From a virus, in IMG/VR virus record IMGVR_UViG_3300015263_000627: a DNA stretch of 64,000 nucleotides. One strand, written 5' to 3'. Below the pieces are notes generated by a model, which had not been told where the DNA came from, made no database searches, and saw nothing but the letters and a program-made list of their open reading frames with translations. Of this stretch, positions 3,957-30,885 are shown in pieces. How positions within the stretch are numbered: the first letter of the stretch is position 1; every line of letters begins with the position of its first letter. The position numbers and the translations under genes were made by a program.

Positions 3957-4184
3957 ATGTCCACCTCCGAGATAAAGGAATATAAAATGATATTACATGA
4001 TCCAAATTATGATCTTGTGGAATATCATCCTTTACCTAAAAAAAGGGGACAACAATGTGGCAAATGTGGAATGAAATTTGAGTATGATAAAAGTTATGGT
4101 TATTGGTGTGCTGAAATTGATTGTCCAATGGGTTATGGATCATCCCCTGTTTTTTCGGAGGAAAATAATCCATCTGGATGTTAA
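3957..4184 (+). CDS. Hypothetical Cys-rich protein
   Basis: CGKC...C...CP possible zinc ligands. Confidence 0.45.
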   Translation: MSTSEIKEYKMILHDPNYDLVEYHPLPKKRGQQCGKCGMKFEYDKSYGYWCAEIDCPMGYGSSPVFSEENNPSGC

Positions 4185-4249
4185 CATGAAACTGCACACT
4201 AACTCTATCAATGTTAGTGTGCAGTTTAATAATAAGAATGGAGTAAATT

Positions 4250-5119
4250 ATGCCACAAATCAAAGTCCCTATGTCAGAGTTACAAAAAGACAAAATATTT
4301 CTAGCTACCCCTTGTTATGGTGGAATGTGTGGAGGAATGTTTGCTAAATCTGTTGCTGATTTATCTTCATTATGCACTCGATTTCAAATTCCCCTTCAAA
4401 TTTATTTTCTATTCAATGAAAGTTTGATTACTCGCGCTCGAAATTATGCATGTGATGAATTTATGCGTTCGGGAGCTTCTCATTTGGTTTTTATTGATGC
4501 TGATATTGGATTTGATGCTAATGATGTTATTGGAATGGTTGCTCTCCAGCGTCAAAATTCTTCCTATGATATTATGGGTGGACCATATCCCAAGAAAACT
4601 ATTTCATGGGAAAAAATAAAAATAGCTGTTGATAAAGGAAAAGCTGATAATAATCCCAATGATCTTGAAAAATATGTTGGAGATTATGTTTTCAATCCCA
4701 AAAGCGGACAAAATCAAATTTCTATTGTTGATCCTGTTGAAGTGTTAGAAGTTGGAACTGGATTTATGTCGATTCAAAGATCAGCTATGCAAAAATTTGT
4801 CGAACAGTATCCACAATATATGTATCGTCCTGATCATGTTCGAACTCAACATTTTGATGGTAGTCGAGAAATCATGCAATTTTTTCAAGCTGAAATCGAC
4901 TCAAAATCCAAACGATATTTATCAGAAGATTATTGGTTTTGTCAAAAAGCACAGGCAATAAATCTCCGCACATGGTTATGTCCATGGATAAAATTAAACC
5001 ATACTGGAACCTATGTGTTTGGGGGATCATTATTTGATTTGGCTCAAATTCAGGCTCCCGCTACGGCTGATGCTGCGTTATTGAAGAAAAATAATGAAAA
5101 TATAAAACCTACCAATTAA
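4250..5119 (+). CDS. GT-A fold glycosyltransferase-like protein
   Basis: FLATPCYGG, SLITRARN, FIDADIGF (DxD), VGTGFM, LSEDYWFC, LNHTG. Confidence 0.7.
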   Translation: MPQIKVPMSELQKDKIFLATPCYGGMCGGMFAKSVADLSSLCTRFQIPLQIYFLFNESLITRARNYACDEFMRSGASHLVFIDADIGFDANDVIGMVALQRQNSSYDIMGGPYPKKTISWEKIKIAVDKGKADNNPNDLEKYVGDYVFNPKSGQNQISIVDPVEVLEVGTGFMSIQRSAMQKFVEQYPQYMYRPDHVRTQHFDGSREIMQFFQAEIDSKSKRYLSEDYWFCQKAQAINLRTWLCPWIKLNHTGTYVFGGSLFDLAQIQAPATADAALLKKNNENIKPTN

Positions 5120-9534: not shown

Positions 9535-9945
9535 ATGAATGAAACTGACAGTTTATTTCGAGGTTATGGAATTGAAGTTATCCTACCTGACGATCAAGCA
9601 TTTCTAAAAATCCGAGAAACATTACAACGTATTGGCGTTGCTTCCCGTAAAGATAAGACTTTGTATCAATCTGCTCATATTCTACATAAACAGGGACAAT
9701 ATGCGATTCTACATTTTAAGGAATTGTTTGCTCTGGATGGAAAGAAAACCGATTTTTCGGAAGATGATCGCCAACGTCGAAACGCGATTGCGTCACTTTT
9801 GGAAGAATGGAATTTGGTCAAGATTAAAAACCCTGACCTAGTAATTGACAAGGCTCCGATGAGTCATATCAAGGTAGTCCGTTACAAGGAAAAAAACGAT
9901 TGGGTTTTAAAGTGTAAATATTCCGTAGGAAGGAAAAAAGTCTGA
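9535..9945 (+). CDS. regA: Translational repressor RegA
   Basis: FLKIRETLQRIGVAS, YQSAHILHKQGQYAILHFKELFALDG, RRNAIASLLEEW. Confidence 0.96.
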   Translation: MNETDSLFRGYGIEVILPDDQAFLKIRETLQRIGVASRKDKTLYQSAHILHKQGQYAILHFKELFALDGKKTDFSEDDRQRRNAIASLLEEWNLVKIKNPDLVIDKAPMSHIKVVRYKEKNDWVLKCKYSVGRKKV

Positions 9946-17806: not shown

Positions 17807-18511
17807 ATGAAACTGACTACCCTATTTACTCTTTTTCTTATGATAGCAACTCCAACCTTGGCGGCTGAATGTATTCCGTCCCGGGTTGCTGGTCCTAATC
17901 CTATGGATAAGGTAGGCGAGGAATATGGTAAAACTGTTTCAAGTTTAAAAGATCATCAAGTTATTTTAACATTTGATGATGGTCCAAGTCCGGGAAATAC
18001 CCAAAGAGTTTTGGAAATTTTGAAAAATAATTGTATTTCGGCAGTATTTTTTGTTATTGGAGAAAAAGCACAACGGCATCAAGAGTTAGTCCGGATGATG
18101 GCTAATTATGGTCATATTGTTGGTTCTCATTCTTGGAGCCATCCCCAACCGTTCAATCGATTTTCCAATGTTGTAACAGCATCAGAAATAGATAATGGAG
18201 CCAGTATTGTTCATCAACTTGTGCCGAATAATGACCGATCATTTTTTCGTTATCCGGGATTTGGACACAATTCTTTTACCGAACATTATACTGAACGACA
18301 AGGTTTAACTGTATGGGGAGCCAATATTGATCCTAAAGATTGGAAAGAACCGGGAACAGAAACTTTAGTTCAACGCATTCTTTCGCAGCTATCTAAATTA
18401 CACCGAGGAATTATAGTTCTTCATGAAAATCATACAACTACAGTAGCAGCTTTACCATCTATTATAAAAAGCTTGCGTGAGAATGGTTATGAAATAGTGG
18501 GGATTTTTTGA
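17807..18511 (+). CDS. Exported polysaccharide deacetylase (NodB/CE4 family)
   Basis: Signal peptide; TFDDGP, HSWSHP, FRYPG, DPKDW, IIVLHE. Confidence 0.93.
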   Translation: MKLTTLFTLFLMIATPTLAAECIPSRVAGPNPMDKVGEEYGKTVSSLKDHQVILTFDDGPSPGNTQRVLEILKNNCISAVFFVIGEKAQRHQELVRMMANYGHIVGSHSWSHPQPFNRFSNVVTASEIDNGASIVHQLVPNNDRSFFRYPGFGHNSFTEHYTERQGLTVWGANIDPKDWKEPGTETLVQRILSQLSKLHRGIIVLHENHTTTVAALPSIIKSLRENGYEIVGIF

Positions 18512-19420: not shown

Positions 19421-19479
19421 ATAGATGCCAATAATGGGTCTATAAAATATCAACTCGCTTATAAAGGAGAAACAATATG
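19421..19479 (+). promoter_or_regulatory. ROSE-like RNA thermometer upstream of sHsp
   Basis: CUCGCUU-AUA-AAGGAG hairpin with bulged G pairing the SD; upstream hairpin ATAGAT...GTCTAT. Confidence 0.65.
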
Positions 19480-19968
19480 TTTAGTAACCTTCCGTCTATT
19501 TCTGACCAATTCAACAAATATTTCCTTGGCTTTGACGATATGTTCGAGCGTTTGCAGGATTTTGGGGTCAGTGTCCAACATGAAGTCGCCAAAAATTGGC
19601 CACCTTTTAATATCGTAAAGAATAAAGAAAATTCCTACACCATTGAAATGGCTGTAGCAGGTTTCGGCTCTAACGATATCAATGTTGAAATGGGCGATGG
19701 CACCTTGACCATTACAGGCAAGATGCAATCAACTGATGAAAAGGATACCGGTAATTATCTATTCAAGGGAATTGCCGAGCGATCCTTCACCCGCAAGTTT
19801 AGTCTTGCCGACACTGTTGAAGTGAAAAATGCTGAATTAGTCAATGGTATGCTAAAGGTTTATCTTGACAATCTAGTGCCTATGGCAAAAGCTATCAAGA
19901 AAATCCCAATTCTCAATGGAAACGGGAAAACCGAAGATACTCGCGAACTATTGAACGAGAAAGCGTAA
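19477..19968 (+). CDS. hsp20: Small heat-shock protein Hsp20 (IbpA-type)
   Basis: WPPFNIVK, IEMAVAGF, YLFKGIAERSFTRKFSLAD, AELVNGML, IPI. Confidence 0.96.
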   Translation: MFSNLPSISDQFNKYFLGFDDMFERLQDFGVSVQHEVAKNWPPFNIVKNKENSYTIEMAVAGFGSNDINVEMGDGTLTITGKMQSTDEKDTGNYLFKGIAERSFTRKFSLADTVEVKNAELVNGMLKVYLDNLVPMAKAIKKIPILNGNGKTEDTRELLNEKA

Positions 19969-20227: not shown

Positions 20228-22750
20228 ATGGCATTTTTCTATACAAACGTATATCAGCGATCCAATAAAATATACATTCGGGGTTATAATAACGACAAAC
20301 GTTTTCAAGACGTTGCCGATTATGAACCATATTTATTCATTCCAGACAAGGATGGCAAATCAGACTACCATACCTTACAAGGTGAACCGGTAAAAAGAAT
20401 ATCTTTCAATTCTATAAAAGAAGCCCGAGATTTCGTAAAGAAATACGAAGATGTTGAAAATGCCGCTTTTTATGGTATGACCAATTTCCAGTATGTAGCC
20501 TTGAACGACGAATTTCCGGGGATGATCGATTATAATCCCAAGGTTATTTCTGTTGCTTCACTCGATATCGAAGTTCATTCTCCCAACGGATTTCCAGACG
20601 TTGATAAAGCTGATCAAATGGTATCGGCTATTACACTAATCAAACGAGACAAGATCATCACATTTGGATTGAAAGCTTTTACACCATCTGATCCCAATGT
20701 TACCTATATTCTTTGTGATGATGAAAAGGATTTGTTGAAAAAATTTATTGCTATCTGGAGTGATGATCATCCGGATGTGGTTACCGGCTGGAATATTGAA
20801 ATGTTTGATATTCCCTACCTAGTCAACCGAATCCGCAAATTACTTGGTAACAAATGGGTCAATCTTCTTTCGCCATATGGATTCGTTTATCCACGCGAAA
20901 TAATTCGGGGAAAGTATGCCAGTTCCAATTTTGATGACCGAAAAGAAATCGTTTATGATATCACTGGTATTTCCCAATTAGACTATCAACAGCTTTATCG
21001 TAAATTCACTTTCACCAACCATGAAAGTTATGCTCTTGGGCATATTGCTTTTGTGGAATTGGGTGAGAAGAAAATCGACTATTCGGAAGTCCGATCCTTG
21101 GCTGAATTGTATGAGAAGGATCACGACAAATATATAAATTATAACGTCCGGGACGCCGTATTGGTGGACAAGCTAGAAAAGAAACTTGGTTTCATTCAAC
21201 TAGTGTTTGCTTTGGCATACAAAGCTAAAATCAATTACGTTGATGCTTTGACTACCCTTCGTCCATGGGACGTGATCATTCACAATCATTTGATGGAAAA
21301 AAAGATAGTTATTCCGCAAGCATTCAATCAGGATATGCGTCCGTTTGAGGGAGCCTATGTGAAAGACGTTCAAATCGGAATGCATCGATGGGTGGTATCC
21401 TTCGACTTGAACTCTCTATATCCGTCTATTATTTCGCAATGTAACATTTCACCTGAAACGATGGTAAAGAAAATTGAAATTCCATCCATTGATGAAATTC
21501 TCAAGACCAAATCAATCAATACTAAAGATTTTGATAACATCAATATGCTAAAGGATTGTGAACTATCATTGGTCGCCAACGGTTGGTGTTATATCCGAGA
21601 GAAAAAGGGTTTCCTTGGAGAACTGGTCGATATTTTTATTGCTGATCGTTCTTCCATCCGAAAAGAAATCAAGGTTTTACAAAAAGAAAACAATTCCAAG
21701 AACGAAAACAAAATCTCTCAATTACATAATTACCAGTGGGCGCTAAAGATTTTGACCAATGGTTTGTATGGAGCCTTGGGTAACCGTTATTTCCGTTGGT
21801 TCAATGTTGATCTTGCCGAATCAATTACCAAAACAGGACAATTAGCTGATCGATGGATTGCCGATGCACTCAATGATTATCTCAATAAAGAGCTATCTTC
21901 TCAAGATATGGATTACATTATCGCGGGAGATACTGATTCCGTCTATATCAATCTTGAACCGCTGGTCCAAAAGAACTTTGCATCACTCGATGATACAAAG
22001 CGGATCGTTGAATTTTTGGACAAGGTATGTAAGGAAAAACTGGAACCTTTTATTAAGCGACAGTATCTATCTCTTGGCGAGATGCTTAATTCTTATAACC
22101 AAAAACTGATAATGAACCGGGAAGCTATCTGCAATAAAGCAATCTTCCGGGGCAAAAAAATGTATATTCTCAATGTCTGGAATAGTGAAGGTATTGCCTA
22201 TGAAAAACCCAAGCTGAAAATCAAGGGTATTGAAGCTGTCCGTTCCAGCACCCCTATGGTTTGTCGTAATTCTATTCGGGAAGCTTTAAGTGTTATCATG
22301 AACAAGGAAGAAACTGATTTGCATCAGTTTGTTGCTGAGTTTGAAAAGAAATTCATGGAACTACCATTCGAAGATATTGCTTTTCCCCGAACCTTGAACA
22401 ATTTGGAAACCTATTATGATCCAAATACATTGTTCAAATTGCATTGTCCTATCCATGTGCGAGGATCGATCCTTTACAATAAATTGTTGCAGGATAAAAA
22501 GCTTACATCCAAATATCAAGTTATTCATAATAAGGATAAAATCAAATTTGCTTATTTGAAAAAACCCAATCCAATAAATGAACATGTTATAGCTGCCTAT
22601 AATGAACTACCCGAGGAATTAGGATTGACTAAATACATTGATCATGATATGCAGTTTGAAAAGGCATTTCTATCGCCAATTCGTTCCATTACTTCCATTA
22701 TCGGCTGGAACACCGAAAAACAAAACACATTACTAGGATTTTTTCAATAA
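20228..22750 (+). CDS. 43: Family B DNA polymerase gp43
   Basis: DIEV exonuclease, GWNIEMFD, SFDLNSLYPS, KILTNGLYG, AGDTDS; no intron or intein seen. Confidence 0.98.
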   Translation: MAFFYTNVYQRSNKIYIRGYNNDKRFQDVADYEPYLFIPDKDGKSDYHTLQGEPVKRISFNSIKEARDFVKKYEDVENAAFYGMTNFQYVALNDEFPGMIDYNPKVISVASLDIEVHSPNGFPDVDKADQMVSAITLIKRDKIITFGLKAFTPSDPNVTYILCDDEKDLLKKFIAIWSDDHPDVVTGWNIEMFDIPYLVNRIRKLLGNKWVNLLSPYGFVYPREIIRGKYASSNFDDRKEIVYDITGISQLDYQQLYRKFTFTNHESYALGHIAFVELGEKKIDYSEVRSLAELYEKDHDKYINYNVRDAVLVDKLEKKLGFIQLVFALAYKAKINYVDALTTLRPWDVIIHNHLMEKKIVIPQAFNQDMRPFEGAYVKDVQIGMHRWVVSFDLNSLYPSIISQCNISPETMVKKIEIPSIDEILKTKSINTKDFDNINMLKDCELSLVANGWCYIREKKGFLGELVDIFIADRSSIRKEIKVLQKENNSKNENKISQLHNYQWALKILTNGLYGALGNRYFRWFNVDLAESITKTGQLADRWIADALNDYLNKELSSQDMDYIIAGDTDSVYINLEPLVQKNFASLDDTKRIVEFLDKVCKEKLEPFIKRQYLSLGEMLNSYNQKLIMNREAICNKAIFRGKKMYILNVWNSEGIAYEKPKLKIKGIEAVRSSTPMVCRNSIREALSVIMNKEETDLHQFVAEFEKKFMELPFEDIAFPRTLNNLETYYDPNTLFKLHCPIHVRGSILYNKLLQDKKLTSKYQVIHNKDKIKFAYLKKPNPINEHVIAAYNELPEELGLTKYIDHDMQFEKAFLSPIRSITSIIGWNTEKQNTLLGFFQ

Positions 22751-23172
22751 TGAGATTAGAACAATATTGTTATACACGTAAAGATTTCAAGATTGAATGG
22801 TTTTCGGGAACAGGTCCGGGTGGACAAAACCGAAACAAAGTTCAAACTTGTGTTCGTATAACACACATTCCAAGCGGTATAAAATCAATAGGACAGACTG
22901 AGCGAACCCGCACTGGTAATTTTCGTTTAGCCTTTCAAAACCTTGGAAAGAAAATAGAAATGTGGGTCAAAAAACAAATCGCTTTAGAATCTGTTCCCCG
23001 TAAAAAAATAGATGAACGAATAAGAACATATCATTTTGTGGATAATTGGGTCAAAGATCATCTATCTGGACATACCATTCCAGCTTCCCTTTTGGACAAG
23101 AAATTTGGGGAATTGATAACTGCTCGTAATATCGCAAAACACTTGGAGATAGTTAATGAAAGAATTTCTTAA
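22750..23172 (+). CDS. Mini class I release-factor-like peptidyl-tRNA hydrolase (GGQ)
   Basis: SGTGPGGQNRNK, VRITHIPSG, ERIRTYHF...VKDHLSG; lacks RF domains 1 and 2. Confidence 0.85.
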   Translation: MRLEQYCYTRKDFKIEWFSGTGPGGQNRNKVQTCVRITHIPSGIKSIGQTERTRTGNFRLAFQNLGKKIEMWVKKQIALESVPRKKIDERIRTYHFVDNWVKDHLSGHTIPASLLDKKFGELITARNIAKHLEIVNERIS

Positions 23173-23575
23173 AGAAACTATTGGTCTAATTGTGTTGACT
23201 TTGTTGTTTGCTCTAGTATTTGGAGCATTCAATAAATCTCATGCCCGCACTTGGAAACAAGGCGCAATGCGATATATTCATTATCACAATAATTGCCATG
23301 CTGGTAGTAAACCTGTTATTGCTTCGTTTTATTGGCAGGGACAACGGCTGGCATCCGGGGGACGTTTCAATCCCAATGGACATTCAGTTGCCCATCGATC
23401 ATTGCCTTTTGGACATAAACTTCGAGTAACCAATCCTAAAAATAGAAAAAGTGTTTGGGTAGTAGTCAATGATCGCGGTCCTTATGTAAAAGGGGTAACT
23501 CTTGATTTATCACGCGGCGCTGCTCGCCATATCGGAATGACTAGCTCACAATATGTATGTGTGGAGGGACTATGA
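23156..23575 (+). CDS. rlpA: RlpA-like lytic transglycosylase (DPBB)
   Basis: ASGGRFNP, AHRSLPFG, VNDRGPY, LDLSRGAA; signal peptide. Confidence 0.9.
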   Translation: MKEFLKETIGLIVLTLLFALVFGAFNKSHARTWKQGAMRYIHYHNNCHAGSKPVIASFYWQGQRLASGGRFNPNGHSVAHRSLPFGHKLRVTNPKNRKSVWVVVNDRGPYVKGVTLDLSRGAARHIGMTSSQYVCVEGL

Positions 23576-28899: not shown

Positions 28900-30885
28900 A
28901 TGTTCAACCAACATGTAGGTTTTTTTATGCTCAAAGATGAATATTGTTATCCTGAATCGGTTATTTTGATCGATGAAGCCATAATTTATGAAAAGGCAAA
29001 TGAAGCCAAATCGGTAACCGAACCAGCAGTTCCCAAGCCTACCAAATCCCGTATGTCAAGCCAAAGTCATCTTGACCATGCCGAGGATTTGTTGATTCGT
29101 AAAGGTGAAAGAGGCTTTGATGATATTTTGTCGAGTCTTGGAAAGACCTATGACTATATTCGGGGGCGACACCGAAATGGTTACAGTATTTCCATGAAAT
29201 TTGATGGTAGTCCGGGTATTCTTTGGGGTTATATCAAAGGCAAATTCTTTGTCGCAACCAAATCCTTTTTCAATAAGACCCCCAAAATCAATTTCACCGA
29301 AAAGGATATTGCAACTAATCATGCAAGTTCTTCGAGTATTCAGAAAAAACTTAAATTGATGTTGAAATATCTCCCGGCAGTTACCCCCAAAACAGGTATA
29401 TTTCGGGGAGACTTGATGTTCACTCCCGGTGATGTTTCTCAAGATGGGGATGATATCAATTTTACTCCCAATACCCTGACCTATCATGTTCCTTCGACTA
29501 CCCCGGAAGGAAAAGAACTTCTAAAAGCCAAGATAGGCTTAGTTCCTCACATGATTTATCATGAACAAGAAAATGGCGATCTAAAGGCTACCTTTGATAG
29601 CAGTTTGGCTAAATTCCGTCGAAGTCCTGATGTTTACTTATTCGACCCAAAAATTACTGGACCTTTCGACTTTCCTCCGAATAAACAGCAACAATTTGCT
29701 TCAGAATTGATGAAGGCTCGAAATCTTCAAAAGACCTTGGCTGATCTACATGTATTTGATGCAATAAAGGATCATGAGCCTCTATTATTGAGCTACATCA
29801 ATTCATCAATCAAGGAAAAGAAAGAACGATCCGTTGCAGGTTACATATCTTTTGTTCAAAAATTGTTCAAAAAACATATCGAACATGTAAAATTGGATAA
29901 AACTAAGAACCGTATCCAAAAGGAAGTTGATGCCGAATTATTCCGGATCAATCAGAACAAGAAGGGTATTGAAACCCTATTCGATGCCCATAATCATATC
30001 CAAAACGCCAAGCAAGTTCTTGTTGATGTTCTATCTAAGACTTCTCCCTATAAAGAAACTATTCTAGGCAAACCCTCCAAACCGGAAGGTTTTGTCGTAT
30101 CTGTTCATGGTCAACCGGTCAAGCTTGTGGATCGAAAGGAATTTTCCGCTGCTAATTTTGATTGGAACACTAAGGTCGATCCCGAAGATAATCCAATGGT
30201 CATATCATGGGGACGTATGAATCCTATGACAGCAGGACACGAAAAGATGATGAATATTGGAAGTGATATTGCTCGCCGTATTGGAGCTAAACAAAAGGTC
30301 ATTATGTCCCGAAGTCAGGACCCGGAGAAAAATCCTCTAACTCCTCAAGAAAAATTGAAATGGGCAAAGACTCTATTCCCGGGCAAAGATATTGCTGTTG
30401 CGGGAGAAAATGAACCAACCCTTATTGCTCAATTACAACATATGTATAATAGTGGGGTCAAAGACCTTACTATGGTTGCAGGTAGTGATCGAACCAAAGA
30501 ATATACCAAAATCCTTGCTCGATATAACGGTCCCGGTGAAAACAAGCTATTTAATTTCAAGCGAGTTAGGGTTGTATCAGCAGGCGAGCGTGATCCAGAT
30601 AGTGAAGGTATTGCAGGTATCAGCGCAAGCAAGGTTAGAAGCGCCGCTGCCAAGAATGATTATAAAACCTTCTCGTCAATGATCCCTAAACACGTATCTT
30701 CTCTTGCCCGTCAAGACCTATTCCATACCCTTCGAGCTAATCAAGGATTGGTAAAAATAGGCTCAGATACTCCGGGGATAGCTCTTAGCATATATTCTAA
30801 ACGGAAACAGGGGGATAAGGTGGGTGATGATTCTAGGCGCGAGATTGAAAAACGCAAAAAACAAGGAAATTGGACCGGAAAATAA
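28900..30885 (+). CDS. Fusion of putative ligase-fold nucleotidyltransferase and HIGH-family (cytidyltransferase-like) domain
   Basis: N-terminal KFDG, GDLMF, EGFVV, VKLVDR; C-terminal WGRMNPMTAGHEK, KNPL, MVAGSDR, GERDPD, ISASKVR. Confidence 0.7.
   Translation: MFNQHVGFFMLKDEYCYPESVILIDEAIIYEKANEAKSVTEPAVPKPTKSRMSSQSHLDHAEDLLIRKGERGFDDILSSLGKTYDYIRGRHRNGYSISMKFDGSPGILWGYIKGKFFVATKSFFNKTPKINFTEKDIATNHASSSSIQKKLKLMLKYLPAVTPKTGIFRGDLMFTPGDVSQDGDDINFTPNTLTYHVPSTTPEGKELLKAKIGLVPHMIYHEQENGDLKATFDSSLAKFRRSPDVYLFDPKITGPFDFPPNKQQQFASELMKARNLQKTLADLHVFDAIKDHEPLLLSYINSSIKEKKERSVAGYISFVQKLFKKHIEHVKLDKTKNRIQKEVDAELFRINQNKKGIETLFDAHNHIQNAKQVLVDVLSKTSPYKETILGKPSKPEGFVVSVHGQPVKLVDRKEFSAANFDWNTKVDPEDNPMVISWGRMNPMTAGHEKMMNIGSDIARRIGAKQKVIMSRSQDPEKNPLTPQEKLKWAKTLFPGKDIAVAGENEPTLIAQLQHMYNSGVKDLTMVAGSDRTKEYTKILARYNGPGENKLFNFKRVRVVSAGERDPDSEGIAGISASKVRSAAAKNDYKTFSSMIPKHVSSLARQDLFHTLRANQGLVKIGSDTPGIALSIYSKRKQGDKVGDDSRREIEKRKKQGNWTGK

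Follow-up and report, generated by a model that had tools for sequence, protein, structure and literature searches.

Mini-RF, a stand-alone GGQ protein of phages related to the C-terminal half of RF1, is a candidate codon-independent ribosome rescue factor

A 64,000-nucleotide stretch of the virus record IMGVR_UViG_3300015263_000627 (hereafter the window), from an uncultured T4-like phage, carries a small gene whose product is related to the class I release factors (RFs) of translation. The record that contains the window is complete, with 181,157 bp and terminal repeats in direct orientation. This protein, hereafter named mini-RF, joins a catalytic GGQ domain to a remnant of RF1 domain 4. On balance, the reading we favor is that mini-RF is a codon-independent peptidyl-tRNA hydrolase, predicted to rescue stalled ribosomes during phage infection with a sensor unlike those of the known rescue factors.

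Domain architecture of mini-RF

Class I factors read the stop codon with domain 2, and their GGQ loop triggers peptidyl-tRNA hydrolysis in the peptidyl-transferase center. An earlier note on this DNA had described a 140-amino-acid GGQ protein with an RF1-like IRTY..DH segment and no decoding domain, and this description was borne out by profile searches. The Pfam RF-1 model (PF00472) matched residues 10-104 (E value of 1.1e-17, 64.5 bits against a cut-off of 35), with the GGQ motif at residues 24-26, and no PxT/SPF decoding region was found in mini-RF. The PCRF domain (PF03462) was absent from the protein and gave no match in the complete genome even at E<=1. Because the genome holds no PCRF piece, mini-RF is not one half of a split gene, and a split-gene RF was ruled out.

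The NCBIfam RF1 models (TIGR00019 / NF001859) scored 60-65 bits against cut-offs of 400-423, with positions 213-337 of 347 aligned, and the NCBIfam RF2 match scored below RF1. The PrfH model (TIGR03072) reached 53.3 bits against a cut-off of 166.65, at PrfH positions 104-186 only and without the N-terminal domain, and the ArfB model (NF006718) gave 18 bits against a cut-off of 100, aligning only residues 10-38 (29 residues around the GGQ motif). By these scores mini-RF falls outside RF1, ArfB and PrfH and inside the GGQ superfamily (PF00472). Among the sequences of the PDB, the single mini-RF protein also aligned best to RF1, and RF1 chains were matched at positions 228-357 of 371 and 196-318 of 342. 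When a profile built from 38 family members was compared with the same sequences, RF1 scored 99.9 bits (profile positions 6-124), RF2 about 90, PrfH 64.7, C12orf65 57.9 and ArfB 29, the last through the GGQ motif only.

An AlphaFold2 (AF2) model based on the family alignment had a predicted local distance difference test score (pLDDT) of 92.9, with values of 95-98 across the domain 4 region. In the model a GGQ alpha/beta domain comes first and is followed by a 27-residue helix; after a loop there are two short strands and then a C-terminal helix of 28 residues. A Foldseek search with this model returned ribosome-bound RF1, RF2 and mtRF1a first, with E values of about 1e-8. Among ranks 1 to 33, the 70S-bound chains superposed with a root-mean-square deviation of 5-9 A. 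The deviation was 17-21 A with RFs in free crystal form and with two complexes in the pre-accommodated state (18.6 A for the pre-accommodated 5mdy). PrfH ranked 43rd, and ArfB was not among the significant Foldseek matches of the model. By alignments and model, mini-RF is thus RF1 domain 3 joined to a trimmed switch loop and to what is left of domain 4, and has lost domains 1 and 2 (Table 1).

Table 1. Coordinates of mini-RF, its predicted elements and other genes in the window
Feature	Position	Strand	Description or evidence
mini-RF gene	22750..23172	+	140 amino acids; domain 3 of RF1, short switch loop, remnant of domain 4 and C-terminal helix
Catalytic GGQ (GGT GGA CAA), residues 24-26, within the family motif GxGGQxRNK	22819..22827	+	G24, G25, Q26 and N29 invariant in 38 members
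Long helix, residues 54-80, equivalent of RF1 helix alpha7	22909..22989	+	AF2 model and RF1 alignments
Shortened switch-loop equivalent, residues 81-91	22990..23022	+	7-9 residues shorter than in aligned RF1s, without G(T/S)G(D/E)RS
IRTYHFVDNWVKDH, residues 91-104, two beta strands homologous to RF1 domain 4	23020..23061	+	R92, Y94, N99 and D103 invariant in the family
C-terminal helix, residues 112-139, homologous to RF1 C-terminal helix	23083..23166	+	Charge about neutral
gp43-type family B DNA polymerase (PolB), 840 amino acids, upstream overlapping gene	20228..22750	+	Pfam PF00136/PF03104
TAATG, polymerase stop overlapping mini-RF start	22748..22752	+	TAA at 22748-22750, ATG at 22750-22752
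DPBB/RlpA-like protein (lytic transglycosylase fold), hydrophobic N-terminus	23156..23575	+	17-nucleotide overlap with the end of the mini-RF gene
PTH2-like peptidyl-tRNA hydrolase, 159 amino acids	45808..46287	+	N-terminal 55 residues match, just above the Pfam cut-off

Relation to known release and rescue factors

The C-terminal half of RF1 (PrfA) is the best match of mini-RF in both sequence and fold, the two having in common the GGQ domain, helix alpha7, the IRTY(N/H)F..V.DH strands and the C-terminal helix. Compared with RF1, mini-RF is devoid of domain 1, which contacts RF3, and of domain 2, which holds the PxT codon reader, and its switch loop is shortened (Table 1), with 10-11 residues in 38 of 38 aligned members. 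In RF1, helix alpha7 carries domain 3 towards the peptidyl-transferase center, and opening of the factor is coupled to stop-codon reading through domain 2 and the switch-loop insert. The open, active form of RFs is stabilized by the switch loop against S12, 16S rRNA, the domain 2 sheet, A1493 and A1913 (PMC6561943). Since domain 2 and the switch-loop insert are both gone in mini-RF, we infer that the factor is constitutively open and that its release activity would be codon-independent. Its sequence indicates a protein unable to read stop codons.

ArfB (YaeJ) and mitochondrial ICT1 are also stand-alone GGQ proteins of about 140 amino acids, and mini-RF resembles them in its predicted codon independence. 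However, mini-RF has neither the flexible linker nor the basic C-terminal helix destined for the mRNA channel, and only the GGQ motif aligns. The claim that a long basic tail of the ArfB type is missing held up: the last 29 residues have a net charge of +1, with a median of -1 over the family (C-terminal 19-32 residues of 38 members), a tail charge of about 0, whereas bacterial ArfB-type tails are strongly basic.

A factor without a basic tail might free nascent chains from split 50S-peptidyl-tRNA complexes rather than from 70S ribosomes, in the manner of the mitochondrial pair mtRF-R (C12orf65)/MTRES1, and would then need no mRNA-channel sensor. C12orf65 is a detectable relative in the profile comparison given above, but the likeness is limited to the GGQ domain and the helix (profile positions 13-88). 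Moreover, the invariant IRTY..DH segment corresponds to the part of RF1 located at the decoding region of the 30S subunit and so favors a 70S substrate, and no conserved partner gene was found among the neighbors (see below). We hold a role on split 50S subunits to be quite unlikely.

PrfH, another shortened RF1/2 homolog with a GGQ motif and no stop-codon reading, differs from mini-RF in keeping an N-terminal rRNA-recognition domain similar to domain 2. PrfH acts with RtcB2 in the rescue of ribosomes damaged by ribotoxins and is genomically tied to RNA repair (PMC9304027), and the PrfH and RtcB pair is a precedent for the association of an RF homolog with RNA repair (PMC9304027, PMC6514570). 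Genes for Rnl1 ligase, kinase and phosphoesterases are likewise found near phage members of the mini-RF family. The operon partner of PrfH is RtcB2; no match to RtcB (PF01139) was found in the genome of this phage, and some mini-RF members lie near Rnl1-type ligases instead.

Small phage GGQ proteins without a decoder also include the RF-1 of cluster C mycobacteriophages (BackyardAgain gp206; PHROG 3122). At the BackyardAgain locus (L082, RF-1 at 3974-4330), the gene order DnaE polymerase, small open reading frame (ORF), RF-1 and RecA parallels the order PolB, mini-RF, several ORFs and UvsX in this phage. Nevertheless, BackyardAgain RF-1 has 118 amino acids, is 36% identical over the GGQ domain and helix only, lacks the IRTY..DH segment and ends in an acidic tail; the cluster C protein is a different subtype. 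A further group of phage RF1-like proteins, of about 180-235 amino acids and devoid of domain 1, has the GGQxRNK and (I/V)RTY motifs in common with mini-RF. Three of them (P0179, P0229 and P0238) retain domain 2 with a P(P/K)TE codon-reading motif, as well as the full switch loop GSGMRG. These domain 1-less RFs are presumably still able to read stop codons.

Family, selection and distribution

We defined the mini-RF family by alignment as proteins of 125-150 amino acids with the motif GxGGQxRNK, a loop of 10-11 residues, a non-basic C-terminal helix and the domain 4 motif (I/V)R(T/N/S)Y..(D/E/R/G)N.V.D(H/K/N/S). Mini-RF itself has the length, both motifs, the loop and the non-basic tail. A word-indexed search returned 196 relatives of 119-168 amino acids, 40-75% identical and located on contigs of up to 384 kb. 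In an exhaustive search, 160 clusters (50% identity) were recovered at E<=1e-10, mostly with 120-145 amino acids, and relatives are encoded on 424 IMG/VR contigs. The nearest clusters of the ESM Atlas were RF-1 proteins of 130-131 amino acids, 93-97% viral.

Eleven residues are invariant in 38 diverse members (G24, G25, Q26, N29, H39, N57, A61, R92, Y94, N99 and D103), and the median pairwise Nei-Gojobori ratio of nonsynonymous to synonymous substitution rates (dN/dS) among related loci is about 0.1. Constraint in the family is strong on the GGQ domain, on the long helix and on the strands of domain 4. The earlier note had raised the possibility that the gene is a decaying fragment of an RF. 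Phages indeed encode full-length RF1-like proteins of about 330-350 amino acids in addition to the domain 1-less forms, and a remnant of such a full-length gene could be imagined. Mini-RF is not a decaying fragment, however, because hundreds of members have kept a length of 125-150 amino acids, neither catalytic nor domain 4 residues vary, and the dN/dS value is as low as about 0.1. It is thus extremely improbable that the gene is what remains, without function, of a full-length phage RF1 gene.

A pattern scan of 185,579 bacterial and archaeal species (one genome each) returned no stand-alone form made of domains 3 and 4. The best bacterial and archaeal matches were mostly GGQ domain only, had 110-130 amino acids with long Arg/Lys-rich tails and are of the ArfB type; a few PrfH-type and longer RF-like proteins were also found. 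From these searches the mini-RF family looks phage-restricted.

Bacterial contigs also encode a third type of small GGQ protein, of about 165-226 amino acids, whose C-terminal part has a conserved segment similar to G(V/T)S(T)SQL(V/I)K(F/L)(L/I)K...R...GL. This segment is neither an ArfB tail nor an RF domain 4. The contigs concerned are mostly from Planctomycetota (L099, L102, L107, L111, L113, L119, L120, L129, L135, L136, L149 and L157).

Genomic context in related phages

Genes surrounding mini-RF homologs were evaluated at 80 related viral loci; the phages are akin to one another, and the counts given below do not represent independent events. A tRNA gene lies within 500 bp of the mini-RF gene at 27 of the 80 loci, often only 10-30 bp away. 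At 27 loci the gene has tRNAs on both flanks, and at 37 at least three tRNA or transfer-messenger RNA (tmRNA) genes are found within 6 kb. Five loci carry a tmRNA gene, in one case 45 bp downstream of the gene. In the five whole records analyzed (104-374 kb), the tRNA array makes up 3-14% of the sequence, and the gene is located inside the array in all five. The locus with this spacing belongs to a 363-kb phage contig (L073; 6354-6867), where the tmRNA begins 45 bp after the mini-RF gene; 3.5 kb downstream (9833-9909) lies a tRNA with the anticodon CTA, an amber reader called 'Pyl' by ARAGORN.

We then grouped the neighboring gene products, 735 ORFs from about 70 loci, into families. Recurrent neighbors were a calcineurin-like phosphoesterase (9 loci), DUF2828/DUF7788 (8), a dual-specificity phosphatase (8), an RNaseH-like protein PF04308 (5), VWA (5), an Rnl1-type RNA ligase (4), HD_4 (3) and an AAA_33 kinase (3). 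Several of these families are typical RNA-repair enzymes. One set recurs in phage tRNA arrays, namely a DUF2828/DUF7788 protein of about 471 amino acids (L054:1202-2614), a 187-amino-acid metallophosphoesterase (L047:7648-8208) and a 164-amino-acid dual-specificity phosphatase (L074:4132-4623), plus their relatives, joined in some loci by the Rnl1 ligase and the AAA_33 kinase. This neighbor set looks like an RNA-repair module.

No neighbor gene was universally linked to mini-RF among the clustered ORFs, which makes an obligatory protein partner unlikely. This result bears on the possibility that mini-RF depends on a phage or host adaptor (ArfA-, BrfA- or ArfT-like), which would replace domain 2, complete the domain 4 sheet and sense the stall. 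Domain 2 is the pairing partner of the domain 4 strands in RF1 and RF2, and the missing basic tail must be made up for somehow. ArfA adds a strand to this domain 2/domain 4 sheet (PMC5378476). On the other side, the AF2 model is confident for the protein alone, including the domain 4 region, and no linked gene emerged from the neighbor analysis. A requirement for an adaptor is, in our view, unlikely.

The link with DNA polymerase, which the earlier note had put forward, was kept in the closest relative and is absent from almost all of the 80 loci. This relative is 75% identical and located on a 173-kb contig with the order PolB, mini-RF, DPBB, RecA-like and DnaB-like, with 4-nucleotide overlaps at both the start and the end of the mini-RF gene. 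In a tblastn search with the window neighbors, polB was found within 6 kb at 2 of the 80 loci and was never adjacent, and other members adjoin ribonucleotide reductase or terminase/portal genes. A conserved polymerase link was rejected, the order PolB-mini-RF-DPBB being kept in the closest relative only. The link is lineage-specific and probably reflects co-expression with the replication module rather than a functional tie to gp43.

Of the three roles that had been suggested from the sequence, codon-independent rescue draws support from this genomic context (tRNA arrays, tmRNA and RNA-repair genes), and nothing was found in support of a dominant competitor of host RFs or of host shut-off. Such a competitor, modulator or shut-off factor could act by A-site occupation, by titration of PrmC or RF3 or by indiscriminate release. 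Expression with early or middle replication genes would suit a take-over, and the GGQ domain is the part of RFs recognized by PrmC, as known from the RF1-PrmC complex. However, the phage relies on the same ribosomes and would be hurt by an unselective releaser, a decoy would not need invariant domain 4 residues, and neighbors such as tRNA, tmRNA and RNA-repair genes speak for a part in sustaining translation, not in blocking it. We see only a small chance that mini-RF interferes with host termination in one of these ways.

Proposed role in ribosome rescue

Known rescue in bacteria and organelles is carried out by tmRNA-SmpB, ArfA, ArfB, BrfA, PrfH, ICT1 and mtRF-R. To our knowledge, in every solved nonstop case the stalled ribosome is recognized by a basic tail that occupies the empty mRNA channel. 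The mode of mini-RF would differ from that of SmpB, ArfB, ArfA, BrfA and PrfH-CT, which insert such a tail.

As a rescue factor, mini-RF would enter the A site of ribosomes in which this site is persistently vacant, following truncation or cleavage of the mRNA, starvation of codons for tRNA after attack by host anticodon nucleases, or other damage. The GGQ loop would then reach the peptidyl-transferase center and free the nascent chain, so that the ribosome is returned to phage translation. Since the tail is not basic, stalled ribosomes could be sensed by the domain 4 remnant at the decoding-center/H69 region, or through kinetic competition with aminoacyl-tRNA in the ternary complex, and mini-RF might act too when mRNA still fills the A site. 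Two compatible uses may be envisaged: recycling of ribosomes on host mRNAs degraded during take-over, and unjamming after cleavage of tRNA, mRNA or rRNA by host nucleases. Co-transcription with the replication module, with a start overlapping the polymerase stop, would imply early or middle expression.

Several points weigh against rescue. RF1 domain 4 strands sit in a sheet shared with domain 2, and a lone remnant may or may not dock on the 30S subunit. An unselective release factor would also harm translation of the phage itself. Most of the tRNA and RNA-repair surroundings were seen in one subset of related phages, at loci that are not independent, and in this phage the mini-RF gene lies outside the tRNA island. 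A positively charged C-terminal tail in the mRNA channel is needed by all known nonstop rescue factors (PMC12829566), and the mini-RF family has no such tail. For this reason mini-RF, if a rescue factor, must recognize ribosomes differently.

A counter-nuclease logic has been proposed for PrfH-RtcB and phage PTH2 by Aravind and colleagues (PMC6514570, PMC7824862). We tentatively propose, as a possibility in which we place less confidence than in rescue as such, that mini-RF is a phage-evolved rescue class acting without a stop codon or basic tail and hence on mRNA-filled A sites, for example where host anticodon nucleases have starved a codon of its tRNA. It might then be one part of a counter-defense kit, along with the tRNAs, tmRNA and RNA-repair enzymes of phages, as a viral counterpart of bacterial PrfH-RtcB.

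Proteins of this kind already carry the database labels 'RF-1 domain' or 'peptide chain release factor'. The mini-RF family belongs, by its sequence, among the GGQ release-factor-derived peptidyl hydrolases, with a predicted activity. Phage RFs are mentioned in reviews of huge phages (PMC7162821), and RF-1, Pth and tmRNA genes in mycobacteriophage tRNA arrays were noted by Morgado and Vicente (PMC5966550). Apart from such general references to phage RFs, and to RF-1 within the tRNA arrays of mycobacteriophages, the searchable literature yielded no described phage GGQ mini-factor, and no description of the domain 3 and 4 architecture, the phage restriction, the missing basic tail or the embedding in tRNA/RNA-repair islands. 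If active, this abundant tail-less family points to a different principle of stalled-ribosome recognition. Were the counter-defense proposal true, phage defense against tRNA-, mRNA- and rRNA-cleaving immunity would widen from tRNA supply and RNA repair to the unjamming of ribosomes. Mini-RF is small, folds confidently in silico and is amenable to standard Escherichia coli release assays.

Gene organization and other translation genes in the window

The mini-RF ORF opens at the first start codon past the upstream in-frame stop, and its frame is open for 30 codons upstream of the ATG. The TAATG overlap with the gp43-type polymerase gene, described previously, was found as stated (Table 1), and translational coupling of the two genes is inferred from it. 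An AGGA sequence is present at 22735-22738, 11 nucleotides upstream of the mini-RF start. The polymerase shares about 44% identity with its gp43 counterparts in T4-like cyanophages (cyanomyovirus). Downstream, the DPBB gene overlaps the end of the mini-RF gene, and the small ORFs beyond it overlap one another as well; because successive ORFs overlap, the region constitutes a single, compact transcription unit. Directly before the stop/start overlap there is a run of six T (GGATTTTTTCAATAATG, window positions 22736-22752). A -1 frameshift fusion of PolB and mini-RF was considered and dropped, the heptamer not being canonical and the closest relative having a plain 4-nucleotide overlap.

ARAGORN identified 25 tRNA genes at the genome ends, with neither a suppressor tRNA nor a tmRNA among these calls. 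The PTH2-like gene provides a translation-maintenance context and is not part of the mini-RF gene. With it, the phage would have two unrelated candidate peptidyl-tRNA hydrolases. Within this genome, the only trace of Rnl1 was a weak sub-threshold match to the T4 Rnl1 nucleotidyltransferase region inside a 661-amino-acid DUF6267 protein (28900-30885, +; 273.8 bits), and Rnl1 was not retained as a candidate. The DUF6267 protein, located in the replication module, may be a ligase-like enzyme.

No near-identical phage record was returned when 6 kb were compared with INPHARED by megablast. Among public runs, this DNA is present in marine-sediment metagenome runs, which may be the source sample, and no RNA run is listed with it. 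Just upstream of the polymerase gene, an Hsp20/alpha-crystallin small heat-shock protein (19477-19968, +) and a polysaccharide deacetylase (17807-18511, +) are encoded. The DPBB neighbor is kept downstream of mini-RF in the closest relative, and a 48%-identical DPBB copy is found in another related locus (L002, 8532-8792), about 2 kb downstream of mini-RF with tRNAs between the two genes.

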